From Gemmatimonadota bacterium (lineage in GTDB: Bacteria; Gemmatimonadota; Gemmatimonadetes; Palauibacterales; Palauibacteraceae): a DNA stretch of 64,000 nt. Below are positions 54,577-58,399 of this stretch, in pieces. Under the pieces are notes generated by a model. That model did not search any database. It was not told where the DNA came from and worked only from the letters and a program-made list of their open reading frames with translations. Position numbers and translations under genes: made by a program. Numbering within the stretch: position 1 is the stretch's first letter; each line of letters starts with the position of its first letter. Location: assembly GCA_963666735.1 (NCBI GenBank), contig OY762926.1, positions 3,008,001 through 3,072,000 of the forward strand. The letters run 5' to 3'.

Positions 54577-55310
54577 GCGGGCCGGACGGATCGCTCGTGA
54601 TCGTGGCCGGCGGGCGTTCGCGCCGCCTCGGCCGGGACAAGCCACTGGTCGAGATCGGCGGCCGCACCGTGCTGTCGCGGATCCTGGAGGCCACGGCGCA
54701 TATCGCGGACATCGTGCTCGCGGTGCGCGAGGTGCCGCCATTCCGGCGCACCCTCGAGGCGGAAGGCTGGGAACCCGCCGCGGAGCGTGCGGGCCGCCCG
54801 CCCGGATCTGTTGCGCTCCGGAACCCGAACGGCCGCGCCCTCGTCGTCGTGCCCGACCCGGTGCCCGACCTCGGCCCCCTCGCCGGCCTCGCCTCCGGGC
54901 TGGGCGCGGCGCATGGTGCGATCTGCGTTGTGCTGGCGGGCGACCTTCCCTTCGTCACCCCGGATCTCGTCGACCGCCTGAGCCGTGAACTCGCGAGCGA
55001 CGCGGAGTTGGACGCGGTCGTGCCGCGCGCCCGCGGCCGGGCACAGCCCTTGTGCGCCGTCTATCGGCGAGAGGTCGGCCAACTGGCCACGCGGCTGGTG
55101 GCGCGGGCCGCCGAGTCCGGGGGCTCGTCCCCCTCGATGATGAGTTTTCTCGAGCGGTTGAGGGTGCGATACGTCACGGCCGAGGATTTGGCCGGGACCG
55201 GCGACATCGAGACGATGGTCCGGGGCGTGGACAGCCGGGCCGACCTGGACTGGGCCGTGCGCCGCGCCTCGCGGCCCGATGGCTTTCGCTTCGAGCCGGA
55301 CACGCCCTGA
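54573..55310 (+). CDS. mobA: Molybdenum cofactor guanylyltransferase-like NTP transferase
   Basis: 'AGGRSRRLGRDK', 'GPLAGL', 'GDLPF', 'QPLCAVY'. Confidence 0.85.
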   Translation: MSGPDGSLVIVAGGRSRRLGRDKPLVEIGGRTVLSRILEATAHIADIVLAVREVPPFRRTLEAEGWEPAAERAGRPPGSVALRNPNGRALVVVPDPVPDLGPLAGLASGLGAAHGAICVVLAGDLPFVTPDLVDRLSRELASDAELDAVVPRARGRAQPLCAVYRREVGQLATRLVARAAESGGSSPSMMSFLERLRVRYVTAEDLAGTGDIETMVRGVDSRADLDWAVRRASRPDGFRFEPDTP

Positions 55311-55504
55311 CGGCCGGACGATGGCTTGGATGGCTTGCGCTGGCGGGGGCTACTTCACAGCGGACATCGCTCGTCGCACCGCGTCTTCCATCGCGACTAC
55401 CTCGTCGTACCGCATCGGATACGACTCGCGGGTTTGCGGCCCGTGCGTCTCGGTGCGCCGGGCGCCGGCCACGACGTTTAGGATTTGGGGTTGTGTTCGA
55501 ACAT

Positions 55505-55881
55505 GGTCCGGGATCCTCCTCGCCCGCGATCATCGCCTCCGTGGTCGCGCGGCCCGTCACGCCCATGATGTCGGAGACCACCGAGCCCAGCTTGACGTTT
55601 GCCAGCTCCAGGATCCTTCCCACCCGGTTGACCTGCGAGTTCCGGTCCGGACGAGCGCTTTCCGGAGCCGGGTCAGATCGCGCAGATCGCGGATCTCCGG
55701 CGGCGGCACGAAGCTGCCCTTGAGCAGTCCGCACTCGAGAAGCTGTGCGATCCACTCGCAATCCCGAATGTCCGTCGTCCGGCCGGGCACGTGCTTGACG
55801 TGCCGGGCGTTGACCAGCAGCGGCCGGAAGCCGGTCTCGAGCACCGCGTACACCGGGCGCCGGCCGGTACACGCCCGTCGA
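55505..55881 (-). pseudogene. IS110-family transposase remnant (truncated, at least two frameshifts)
   Basis: Segments 'STGVY' / 'PVYAVLE..LVNARHVKHVPGRTTDIRDCEWIAQLLECGLLKGSFVPPPEIRDLRDLTR' / 'NRVGRILELANVKLGSVVSDIMGVTGR' in different frames. Confidence 0.88.
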
Positions 55882-55943
55882 TAAACTAATGTCGACGACC
55901 TCAAGCCGCCCCCGCACCGAAGTTCTGGTTTCAGCTCCGCGGG

Positions 55944-55974
55944 GTGGCCACCCCGGCGTGGCCATGCTTTTTCC
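55944..55974 (+). terminator. Possible intrinsic terminator/hairpin insulating the island
   Basis: GTGGCCAC-N6-GTGGCCAT followed by GCTTTTT. Confidence 0.4.
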
Positions 55975-55982
55975 ATTGCGGC

Positions 55983-56020
55983 TTGACGCCGGAGAGAGGG
56001 GGAGGGTAATGTAACTTACA
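55983..56020 (+). promoter_or_regulatory. Putative island promoter with overlapping palindromic operator
   Basis: TTGACG-N18-TAATGT; perfect palindrome TGTAA-C-TTACA at 56010-56020. Confidence 0.45.
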
Positions 56021-56066
56021 ATGAAGCGCGTGTTCCACAGATGCGTCACAATTGCAGGAGAACGCG

Positions 56067-56651
56067 ATGAAGCTTCGATCAAGTATCCGCCGCTGGATTG
56101 GGTGGGCCGTACTCGTACTTGCGGTCAGCTGGACTGGATACCCATTGCAAGCTTACGAAGCCGGGTTCCTCAACCGCCCCTCTCACGCGTTTACGCCGCA
56201 ATTCATGGAAGCGTCTGAGTGGGTATCCGAAACCACGAACATCGAACTCAATTGGAAATGGCCGACCGACGGAGTTTTTCTGGTAGTGGATTGGGAATGC
56301 CCGTGGTCGGAGGCGGCTATCGAAGCAGCGCTTGCGCTCCACGAGACATCGCCGAAACGAGAAGTGCTTCTGCTCGATACAGATCCTCGCAACGGACCTC
56401 GTTGGCGTCGGAAGTTCGGCGCCGAGATGTCGAAGATGCTCCGAATCGTGACCCCCCGTGCCGGCTGGTGGTCCATTGGCACGCCTCGTGGTGTCACCCC
56501 CGTGTGGTTTGTGATTGAAGGCGGTGAGTTCACCGGCGTCGGTGTCGGCGCTGACGGTTTGCGGACGCTGAGTTCGTTTGACTTCGATCCGATGGCGCCG
56601 ATAGTAACGTCAATTGCCCCCGTTGAAGAACTGACCTTGAACGAAAGGTGA
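56067..56651 (+). CDS. Exported thioredoxin-like protein (CxxS)
   Basis: AGGAG RBS, signal/anchor segment, 'VFLVVDWECPWSEAAI' and 'GVTPVWFVI' (cis-Pro loop position). Confidence 0.65.
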   Translation: MKLRSSIRRWIGWAVLVLAVSWTGYPLQAYEAGFLNRPSHAFTPQFMEASEWVSETTNIELNWKWPTDGVFLVVDWECPWSEAAIEAALALHETSPKREVLLLDTDPRNGPRWRRKFGAEMSKMLRIVTPRAGWWSIGTPRGVTPVWFVIEGGEFTGVGVGADGLRTLSSFDFDPMAPIVTSIAPVEELTLNER

Positions 56652-56657
56652 CCTCGC

Positions 56658-56907
56658 ATGCTGCCACGACACGTTGGATCCTTCGCGCTTGTGTTGATCG
56701 CCGCGTTGCTGGTGGCGCCGACCGTCTCACCGATTCCGTCACTGGAGGCGATGAGTGCGGCGTGCCAAGCGGGCCCCCAAGACGAAGTGCTGCACCTGCG
56801 GCGAGCAGGACGGGGAGCCATTCTGTAAGGGTGGAGCATACATAGGAGCGGTATCGTGCGATGGCTCCTCCTGCCCGGATAATCCGGCCTGTCTGTGGGT
56901 ACAGTAG
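56658..56907 (+). pseudogene. Secreted 8-Cys peptide, copy 1 (one extra C at 56774-56778)
   Basis: Signal peptide in frame 0; Cys-rich mature part in +1 frame aligns with the peptide at 58115. Confidence 0.8.
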
Positions 56908-56972
56908 GGACAGCGAGTGTTCTCGTCCTTCAGTCGCCTATCGTCGCGCGCCCACCCAAGCGTAGCCGCTGC

Positions 56973-58067
56973 ATGAGGACTCCGCGCTTCCGTGTTTTGC
57001 AGCAGTTGCTGATGTGTTCTTCGGTTCTTGGCTCCGGAGAGAGCAACCACGCGTGGCTATTGCCCGGACTAAGCGACGTGAGGGCCGAGGCGGCGGGGGC
57101 GGATTCCTCGTGGGTGGCGGTATCGCTTCGAGAATACGGTAGTTTGTCTGGAGAGATATCCTTCGGCGCCCCTATCGACGCGGCGGTTCTCGCGGATGGC
57201 AGTCTCGTTGTAGCGGATCTGCACGCCTGCACCCTTACAGTGATCGCGCGACCCGAGGGTCGCTTGCGCCACAAACTGGGTCGTTGTGGCGATGGCCCCG
57301 GCGAATTTCGGATGATCCGAATCATCGACACGTTCGGCGACTCGATCTTCGTTTACGATCAGGGACACGGTGCCGTCGTCGTGTTGGACGATACGGGCCA
57401 CGAGGCGAGGCGAGTGCCGCTGGGAGTCGTAGGCGGGCGGCGTGTGACCCTTTCGCATCTGGCCGTACTGGACGACTCGACGCTGGTGGTCGCTACCGAG
57501 GCGGCCGACCACGCCAGCGTGGCGCTGGTCGACAGTCGAACGGGAGTGTTCCGCAGGTCCTTGTTGGACGCTCCACCTATTGCCATGCGCTCGGACGGCT
57601 GGATCAGGCATATGGCGGCTTGCGTCGAGCCCGGGAGCCGGTCGCCTACCATCGTCGCGACAAGTGAATGGGCTCTTGAAGGTGTTGGATTCGTATCCGA
57701 TACCGGCGAAGAACGATTTCATTTCCTGACATCGCTGGATCTGCCTCCCACGCTCACATCGGGCGGGACGTGGGTGCCGGGGCCAGCCAGGGTCGACGTG
57801 GCTTGCGGTCGCTCGCTAGCTCTTTACCGCGTCGTGACGGTGGATCCGGACGACTTTACGGGAGACATCGCGGACATCCGTGCATCGTCCGTGATTCTTG
57901 AAGCACGCGCGTACAGTGGAGCCCTGCTGATGCGATGGTCGGTCGTGGACACGGCATCGGTACTACGCGGGCCCATGGGCGCCTTCAGGGGGGACACGGT
58001 CTTTCTTCTTGCCGAGAGGGTCCGACCGTACCCGATAGTAAGCGAGATCGTGCTCCGGCCGCGCTGA
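56973..58067 (+). CDS. 6-bladed beta-propeller protein (NHL/DUF5128-like)
   Basis: 'GSLVVAD', 'LGRCGDGPGEFR', 'GDSIFVYD'; start uncertain. Confidence 0.8.
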   Translation: MRTPRFRVLQQLLMCSSVLGSGESNHAWLLPGLSDVRAEAAGADSSWVAVSLREYGSLSGEISFGAPIDAAVLADGSLVVADLHACTLTVIARPEGRLRHKLGRCGDGPGEFRMIRIIDTFGDSIFVYDQGHGAVVVLDDTGHEARRVPLGVVGGRRVTLSHLAVLDDSTLVVATEAADHASVALVDSRTGVFRRSLLDAPPIAMRSDGWIRHMAACVEPGSRSPTIVATSEWALEGVGFVSDTGEERFHFLTSLDLPPTLTSGGTWVPGPARVDVACGRSLALYRVVTVDPDDFTGDIADIRASSVILEARAYSGALLMRWSVVDTASVLRGPMGAFRGDTVFLLAERVRPYPIVSEIVLRPR

Positions 58068-58114
58068 GTCGCGACGGGGATGTGTACGTGTTTTGTCCGA
58101 CAAGGTGGTGCACC

Positions 58115-58399
58115 ATGAGGAACAAGCGACGCACCCGTCGCGAGGGTCGGCGTTTCTTCGTCCTCGCCTTCGCGATCGCTGCAGGACTGATGGCGATAGC
58201 GATGCCGGCGATCCCCTCGCCCGCGCTCGGCTCGGGGGCGTCCGCGTGCAGTAGTTCGCCGGCAACCAGATGCTGCGCATGCGGCGATACCGACGGCGAA
58301 TTCTACTGCCACGGGGGTGCGTACATGGGATCTCCGTATTGCGGCGAGGGCACCGAGTTTTGCGAAAGGAGACTCTGTAGATCGCCGCAGCTACAATAG
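58115..58399 (+). CDS. Secreted 8-Cys peptide, copy 2 (94 aa precursor)
   Basis: AAGGTGG RBS; basic n-region plus hydrophobic h-region; mature ACSSSPATRCCACGDTDGEFYCHGGAYMGSPYCGEGTEFCERRLCRSPQLQ. Confidence 0.85.
   Translation: MRNKRRTRREGRRFFVLAFAIAAGLMAIAMPAIPSPALGSGASACSSSPATRCCACGDTDGEFYCHGGAYMGSPYCGEGTEFCERRLCRSPQLQ

Follow-up and report, generated by a model that had tools for sequence, protein, structure and literature searches.

A 64,000-nucleotide stretch of the genome of a Gemmatimonadota bacterium of the family Palauibacteraceae (assembly GCA_963666735.1, contig OY762926.1, positions 3,008,001 to 3,072,000 of the forward strand; hereafter, the window) harbors a cassette of four co-oriented genes on the plus strand, flanked by mobA (PF12804) and kynU (PF22580). 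In the 5′ to 3′ direction, the genes encode a thioredoxin (Trx)-like protein, a small cysteine-rich precursor (P1), a β-propeller protein, and a second cysteine-rich precursor (P2) (Table 1). The cassette is real, conserved, and undescribed in the openly accessible main texts searched; its peptides make up a new family, set in an architecture that is widespread yet uncharacterized. The four genes lie where an earlier note, made from the sequence alone, had placed them, and the lower guanine-plus-cytosine (GC) content that it had pointed out is evident as well: the cassette has a value of 0.617 against 0.695 and 0.703 in the flanks and 0.685 in the genome, and 1.8% of 1688 equal-sized genome windows reach a value as low. 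At third codon positions, the GC content is 0.63-0.72 in the cassette genes versus 0.88-0.89 in mobA and kynU.

Table 1. Features of the cassette and of the DNA upstream of it (positions in the window).
Feature	Positions	Strand	Basis and remarks
Upstream lineage-specific segment (mobA 3′ end, IS110 remnant, putative promoter)	55157..56043		Replaces about 380 bp of relatives; blastn and alignment
IS110 transposase remnant	55557..55976	-	PF01548, E 2.8e-9, above cut-off; missing in L008-L010
Trx-like protein, membrane-anchored, predicted TlpA/ResA-like fold, C-P-W-S (CxxS)	56067..56651	+	194-aa open reading frame; L008 model, Foldseek, VIA, alignment
P1, predicted signal peptide and 8-Cys mature peptide, frameshifted	56658..56907	+	Read-through marked with X; whole in L008 and L010
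Propeller, DUF5128/NHL-like, six-bladed	56973..58067	+	Start inferred; longest open reading frame from 56895
P2, predicted signal peptide and intact 8-Cys mature peptide, old P1 paralogue	58115..58399	+	Family alignment; mature dN/dS 0.05-0.12

P1 and P2 are homologous, as had been proposed (57% over 28 amino acids; tblastn E of about 1e-5 against the whole genome), and each is the sole match of the other within the genome. The patterns CC.CG..DGE and C.GGAY.G occur in P1 and P2 only, among 57,050 six-frame segments of the genome. Alignment searches extended the pair to a family of 19 sequences (P0003, P0024, and cluster members not included) with the pattern C-x7-13-CC-x-C-x4-9-C-x3-A-x2-G-x3-C-x4-8-C-x4-6-C; one further candidate, P0018, was dropped as a repeat protein without the cysteine pattern. 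Eight cysteines are present in the mature part of 18 of the 19 peptides, and the spacing between the fifth and sixth cysteines is constant at 10. A60 and G63 (P1 numbering) are the only invariant residues other than cysteine and belong to an A-x-hydrophobic-G loop, in which the column of residue 62 contains I, V, L, M, or T in 19/19 peptides. Of the shared scaffold first put forward, the cysteine framework is retained, with C, CC, C, C, A, G, C, and C invariant across the 19 sequences, whereas the DGE and GGAY elements are local. The mature peptides are net negative in 18/19 cases, and their mature part is free of Trp in 13/19, with no Trp conserved. The precursors carry hydrophobic signal peptides of the Sec type; a Tat signal, considered on account of an RRxF motif in a few members, was rejected as unconserved. 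Neither a double-glycine leader nor an ABC transporter-peptidase was found at the loci read, and the peptides share no C-terminal Gly or other end motif.

Comparison of the peptides with Pfam, NCBIfam, and Protein Data Bank (PDB) sequences gave nothing usable, in agreement with the suggestion that they belong to no named family. None of the 19 matches PF14055 (NVEALA), and no Pfam match was obtained at an E below 0.09 in a search extended to E 0.1, while the best Atlas score for a peptide was 0.81, below the lead threshold. Structure modeling, which the earlier note had recommended, covered the complex of P1 with the propeller, which passed (see below), and the 52-residue peptide alone, which gave one model in five with a predicted local distance difference test (pLDDT) score of 78, the others scoring 45-49. 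The confident model contains a β-hairpin core; Foldseek returned 0 matches and VIA 0 of 48,161 chains at Z>=2, which is no proof of a new fold, as small folds, among them known disulfide-rich ones such as knottin, defensin, and VWC, may escape such searches. Judged by their sequences, the cassette peptides form a new bacterial family of presumptive disulfide-rich 8-Cys miniproteins. Phylogenetic analysis indicated that peptides from the P1 and P2 positions separate on one branch across two families (support 91/92, not starred), implying that the duplication is old and that both copies have been retained. Ratios of nonsynonymous to synonymous substitution rates (dN/dS), calculated from three copies with few substitutions, were 0.03-0.13 for the mature peptides and 0.18-0.53 for the signal peptides, compared with 0.27-0.30 for the Trx-like protein, 0.17-0.30 for the propeller, and 0.29-0.76 for mobA. 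The mature peptides are under strong purifying selection.

The further copies and the recurring neighborhood that had been anticipated were both found. Distant loci were retrieved by an alignment search with the Trx-like protein and more by a peptide alignment search, giving ten loci, each counted once: the window, L008, L009, and L010, which share one site, and L019, L020, L021, L022, L035, and L036. They occupy seven chromosomal sites with unrelated flanks, spread over two Gemmatimonadota families, and the order Trx-P1-propeller-P2 holds wherever the parts survive. Ordered cassettes are present in L008-L010, L019, L020, L021, and L035 at 45-60% identity, and remnants in L022 and L036. The cassette is rare: it occurs at the same site in 3 of 35 genomes of the same genus and in 6 of 401 genomes of the phylum; for the second order, the figure is 5 of 401 genomes, all from one family (5/257 of that second family). 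Metagenome scans yielded no confirmed cassette locus in two sets of stretches (0/32 and 0/139), and public sequencing runs containing cassette DNA include sponge metagenomes. Wholly intact loci number three of the ten (L008, L010, and L021). In L019, a stop precedes the last cysteine of P1, and P2 is a remnant; L020 has a stop within the Trx-like gene and a transposase between P1 and the propeller; L035 has a frameshifted propeller with both peptides whole; and L036 contains a propeller plus a P2 remnant. A weak match in G373 turned out to be what is left of a frameshifted P2. L022 has a Trx-like protein without Cys, a propeller split by an insertion sequence (IS), and no trace of either peptide; the sole Cys-less Trx copy thus coincides with the sole locus without a peptide trace, which supports a link between the Trx-like protein and the peptides. 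Some of the breaks in these loci may be assembly errors. IS elements lie within or beside three of the ten loci (the window, L020, and L022). Synonymous divergence among the Palauibacter copies is about 0.3, as in mobA, indicating vertical inheritance among them since their common ancestor. The scattered occurrence at many sites in two families suggests that the cassette is transferred as one unit. At L019:11600-12100, 3.5 kb downstream of that cassette, a further small exported Cys peptide precedes a propeller.

The copy in the window is damaged. A single additional base within a run of C at about 56774-56778 disrupts the P1 reading frame, and the precursor comprises 82 amino acids when the break is read through; an intact 82-aa P1 is present in the relatives L008 and L010, which also have a Trx stalk 28 residues longer, retain the propeller lipobox, and lack the IS110 element. 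In the window, these 28 amino acids of helical stalk are missing from the Trx-like protein (84 nucleotides at 56142/56143), and the lipobox Cys of the propeller is replaced by Ser (codon 57033-57035). The earlier note had overlooked the shortened stalk and, for the propeller, both its lipoprotein nature in relatives and the loss of the Cys here. The third relative, L009, has an assembly gap inside P1 and a shifted P2 start. Among the sequencing runs, the X1 contig shows full identity to the window across the entire stretch (its source may be X1), whereas run X9 agrees with the window at the P1 break (depth 3.2) yet has the lipobox Cys codon, with C>G at 57034 in both X9 and X14. Run X14 has the whole Trx stalk, the Cys codon, and no extra C, and its P1 is broken separately by a 4-nucleotide insertion at 56861. 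An assembly error as the source of the P1 frameshift was rejected on the grounds of the identical X1 contig and the lack of a difference in X9 at low depth. Comparison of the three runs thus reveals that the lesions are natural and recent; the cassette in the window is decaying, and P2 alone is unaltered. P0024, a near homologue of P1 whose sixth Cys is changed to Phe, is another damaged P1. In the RNA run X20 (polyA, share 0.19), short contigs lie on the Trx-like gene, the propeller, and P2, and none on P1, though the contigs of one run cannot show transcription. As for the upstream DNA, the IS110 remnant reported earlier was recovered, and the promoter suggested at 55984 scored below threshold (one site elsewhere against 0.6 expected) and is unconserved in the relatives. 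A blastn alignment with L008-L010 breaks off at 55156 and picks up again at 56044, the DNA upstream of 56044 being nonhomologous to its counterpart in 3/3 relatives. The mobA 3′ end (55157-55310) is unlike that of the relatives and was exchanged along with this segment.

The Trx-like protein shows no Pfam or NCBIfam match, and its thioredoxin fold, claimed earlier together with the CxxS motif, is supported by structural comparison. A model of the intact L008 orthologue (pLDDT 73) consists of a long N-terminal helix, which would serve as anchor and stalk, followed by a TlpA/ResA-like domain. This model matches 3ia1 in Foldseek (E 9e-4, probability 1.0) and 8t4c in VIA (Z 11.2, root-mean-square deviation (rmsd) 2.9, 128 residues aligned). 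C106 opens helix 1, and S109 occupies the resolving position; both are invariant in 11/11 sequences, as is the T-P motif, and CxxS is also found in the L019, L020, L021, and L035 proteins. Since the protein has a single Cys and no CxxC dithiol site, it cannot be a classical two-cysteine oxidase. CxxS proteins such as ERp44 and Eug1p form mixed disulfides, and such a motif suits isomerase or holding roles rather than net oxidation. Elsewhere, the genome contains one VKOR and one MauE above the cut-off. The propeller, with its two invariant Cys pairs, could also be a client of the Trx-like protein.

The propeller in the window matches PF17170 below the cut-off (E 0.002; 17.7 bits against 22.9), and six of eight orthologues match this family, with a best E of 6.7e-5; across the genome, 23 of the 33 PF17170 matches among those listed exceed the cut-off. 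Atlas scores of 0.93-0.94 connect it to DUF5128/NHL clusters, and its profile matches solved NHL domains at E 3e-18, the blade count resting on profiles. The lipobox Cys is present in 6/6 orthologues examined, which marks the propeller of these relatives as a lipoprotein. When the L008 propeller was modeled with mature L008 P1, the complex scored 0.64 (runs of 0.01, 0.70, and 0.64) against 0.30 for the best of three controls; on a calibration only roughly valid for the alignments used, 116 of 157 solved complexes attain this mark, as do 2 of 215 mismatched pairs. Between the runs, >=18% of contacts are shared, and the pLDDT of the partner is >=45 (75 and 74 for the two runs that passed). The contacts of lowest error join P1 residues 57-63 and 79-80 to residues along the entire propeller chain, and the 57-63 loop, which holds A60, residue 62, and G63, is predicted to be seated in the central pocket. 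We know of no like complex for this peptide; many solved structures, however, show a peptide bound to the face of a propeller, and this likeness may help the complex score. The earlier proposal that the propeller is the partner of the peptide is borne out to the extent that binding is predicted for P1; P2 shares the docking loop and, by that loop alone, may bind likewise. A physical pairing of peptide and propeller is fairly probable.

The pairing is not confined to the cassette. An iterated profile detected 92 propeller segments in the 4-Mb genome, and a blind filter for small open reading frames (ORFs) with a hydrophobic start and >=4 Cys retained 27 ORFs. For 21 of them, a propeller on the same strand is no more than 1.5 kb away, where 1.3 are expected (p of about 2e-22). 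P2 is among the 21, and two or three of them have doubtful starts. In a stricter test, 15/92 propellers had a small Cys ORF <=700 bp upstream, versus 0.75% of 400 random places. The peptides beside propellers span many unrelated scaffolds, five other peptide-propeller loci have a Trx-fold neighbor (by motif or Pfam), and most propellers are without an adjacent peptide. The cassette hence represents a single family of a more general peptide-propeller pairing, with about 20 pairs in the genome. The roughly 20 further small Cys ORFs near propellers include C1:353667, 515918, 1911660, 1920818, 1931326, 2414673, 2416910, 2420532, 2430844, 2744456, 2901680, 2901983, 2944106, and 3873180, among which paralogous sets can be discerned (353667/515918/2744456, 1911660/1920818/1924070, and 3873180/3876819). 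C1:332028-336611 is a near-identical duplicate of a peptide-propeller pair. At C1:2382507-2391171, seven tandem propeller genes, none with a small Cys ORF upstream, have the look of an orphan array. C1:1882554-1883051, away from propellers, encodes a predicted lipoprotein of 165 amino acids with 14 Cys and long poly-Pro runs, and a very long frame with ketosynthase-like wording at C1:231471-242894 is presumably a type I polyketide synthase.

Taken together, these observations allow a mechanism to be proposed. P1 and P2 would be exported by the Sec-type signal peptide and released as 8-Cys peptides of about 50 residues, with a presumed cleavage site and four presumed disulfides. The disulfides would be formed by general oxidases, for which the genome has the VKOR and MauE genes, and the anchored CxxS protein would form a mixed disulfide with the peptides, shuffling or holding them until folded, as the known CxxS proteins suggest. 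One face of the propeller lipoprotein would then receive the folded peptide, the invariant A-x-hydrophobic-G loop lying in the central pocket. The system may serve in microbial conflict within sponges as an effector-and-neutralizer module: the peptide would act on other cells, the propeller would capture its own or a foreign peptide, and surplus propellers would be orphan neutralizers. This purpose is favored because of the mobility, the frequent loss, and the surplus of propellers (92 against about 21 peptides), and an exported effector peptide held by a cognate propeller is given a probability of roughly 40%.

Several observations weigh against the effector proposal. The frameshifted propeller of L035 lies beside whole peptides, which would be unexpected for an essential immunity gene unless it is an assembly error. 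The peptides are anionic, whereas typical antimicrobial peptides are cationic, and they are under purifying rather than diversifying selection, no sign of the latter being seen among three close copies with few substitutions. No outer-membrane exporter is encoded within the cassette. Of the three runs of the complex, one did not pass (0.01), and the score is only roughly calibrated for the alignments used. The predicted propeller interface is less conserved than the rest of the protein (22% versus 46% between L008 and L021); this would fit specificity drift and equally any surface loops, and hence lends the model no support. Finally, five genomes have propellers 46-54% identical to that of L008, as close as cassette orthologues, and a peptide or Trx-like gene was found in 0/5 of them; such an empty search is weak evidence, although a similar alignment did find matches in other genomes. 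Four of these peptide-less sister propellers adjoin an ABC transporter or an S8 peptidase, and L053 and L054 (and L048 and L050) represent sister propellers in a cluster of the QHNDH type; it comprises a gamma subunit (PF08992, E 2.6e-33), an ABC transporter, and an S8 peptidase and has gathered several other propeller lipoproteins. Given the anionic charge, the purifying selection, the missing exporter, and the broken propeller of L035, other explanations retain some weight.

The first of these is a stable two-part envelope complex, in which the peptide is a permanent subunit or plug of an adhesin, a ligand-binding protein, or a regulated enzyme on the producer. The large predicted interface across the propeller face would suit such a complex, as would the strong purifying selection on anionic peptides, Sec export without a dedicated exporter, and the usual position of the peptide genes directly upstream of a propeller. 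A permanent subunit is harder to reconcile with close propellers that persist peptide-less in 5/5 genomes tested and with the low share of propellers (15/92) that have a small Cys ORF <=700 bp upstream; moreover, the docking loop is common to P1 and P2, which would make them competitors for a single site. This explanation is unlikely, though less so than those that follow. [quoted passage not shown] It draws on a profile match (E 4e-4) that links residues 43-143 with the peptidylglycine amidating monooxygenase PAL domain and on the Trx-propeller fusions NHLRC2 and the plant quenching protein, the Trx domains of which match the model (6gc1, Z 9.3; 7djk, Z 10.2). A PAL-type lyase needs several conserved His metal ligands, and a lyase of this type was rejected since one His is invariant among the eight propeller orthologues; the pocket residues vary, the matches to non-catalytic NHL proteins (TRIM71 and Brat) score far higher, and the peptide C-termini offer no common Gly or other motif for modification.

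Private signaling, with clade-specific peptides sensed via the propeller, appears improbable: a stable compact ligand, a predicted cognate binder, many distinct pairs per genome, and conservation within clades would all befit it, but the receptor, being a lipoprotein, would not extend into the cytoplasm, and at the loci read the cassette contains no gene for a kinase, an anti-sigma factor, or a regulator. The absence of any functional link, with the genes simply carried along by the same mobile island, is very improbable; IS elements in or beside three of ten loci and the insertion of propellers at many places are compatible with it, and the fixed order and tight spacing at seven sites, the genome-wide enrichment, the purifying selection, and the passing complex speak against it. 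A small subunit of a quinoprotein amine dehydrogenase in the style of MauA/MauB/MauD or QhpC/QhpB is most improbable: the kinds of part are alike and sister propellers sit beside a QHNDH gamma subunit, but the mature peptides are mostly Trp-free with no Trp conserved and match no Pfam family, and the cassettes read contain no gene for a cytochrome, a peroxidase, or a radical SAM protein.

A broader reading, tentative and at rather low odds, is a large, undescribed ligand-binder code in sponge-dwelling Gemmatimonadota: dozens of unrelated disulfide-stapled miniproteins, each gripped in the central pocket of a cognate six-bladed propeller lipoprotein, plus orphan propellers intercepting the peptides of neighbors, the cassette being one family with a new 8-Cys scaffold and a dedicated one-cysteine foldase. 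If true, this code would be a bacterial counterpart of the Cys-rich peptide ligand systems of animals and plants, and would assign a function to a protein family that, in these symbionts, ranks among the most expanded of the unexplained ones. The uncultured symbionts have very large numbers of six-bladed propeller lipoproteins, as the 92 in this genome illustrate, and no function has been assigned to them. Whether propellers are cognate binders of the peptides matters for about 20 loci of this genome and for look-alikes in other phyla, and the cassette offers a small, conserved, synthesizable test case, with a 50-residue peptide, a predicted pocket-binding loop that has three key residues, and a soluble propeller. 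The main text of the Palauibacterales paper (PMC10469786) makes no mention of propeller, NHL, cysteine, or peptide.

Among known systems, the cassette resembles the NVEALA loci in having a small exported Cys protein by a six-bladed propeller lipoprotein, often with a Trx-like gene, and its propeller matches PF17170 under the cut-off. At the level of annotation, NVEALA (PF14055) small proteins stand beside DUF5128/TolB_like propeller lipoproteins in Bacteroidota. The cassette peptides differ from them in matching no Pfam family and in having 8 Cys with a spacing of their own; the word NVEALA is absent from the literature searched, so there is no function to borrow. The mau cluster comprises MauA, a small disulfide-rich subunit, MauB, a propeller, MauD, a Trx-like protein, and MauE. 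It is like the cassette in combining a disulfide-rich small protein, a propeller partner, and a dedicated Trx-fold helper, whereas the cassette has no conserved Trp for a tryptophan tryptophylquinone cofactor, no MauG or MauE, a peptide of less than half the size, and an NHL-type propeller. MauE is reported to be a general oxidase (bioRxiv 10.64898/2026.03.05.709764). Bacteroidetocin (class IIf) clusters are four-gene regions that encode a small Cys-containing peptide toxin together with a thiol oxidoreductase, the presumed source of its disulfides, and share with the cassette the pairing of a Cys peptide with a thiol oxidoreductase-type protein (PMC6671954). According to the same report, a double-glycine leader, 4 Cys, and an ABC transporter-peptidase characterize the bacteroidetocins, which have no immunity protein and for which no propeller is mentioned, in contrast to the Sec-type signal, 8 Cys, anionic character, CxxS motif, propeller, and lack of a transporter in the cassette (PMC6671954). 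The Trx-like protein itself is structurally akin to FetE (8t4c), SdbA (5um7), and ResA (2f9s) (VIA Z 9-11, rmsd of about 3, 125-138 residues aligned); proteins like TlpA, ResA, and DsbE share with it an N-terminal anchor, a Cys where helix 1 begins, and a conserved Pro, and NHLRC2 and SOQ1 place a Trx domain beside an NHL propeller. It differs from these proteins in its single Cys (CxxS), its 6-20% identity, and its long stalk, and in the cassette, the Trx fold and the propeller are encoded by separate genes with peptide genes between them.

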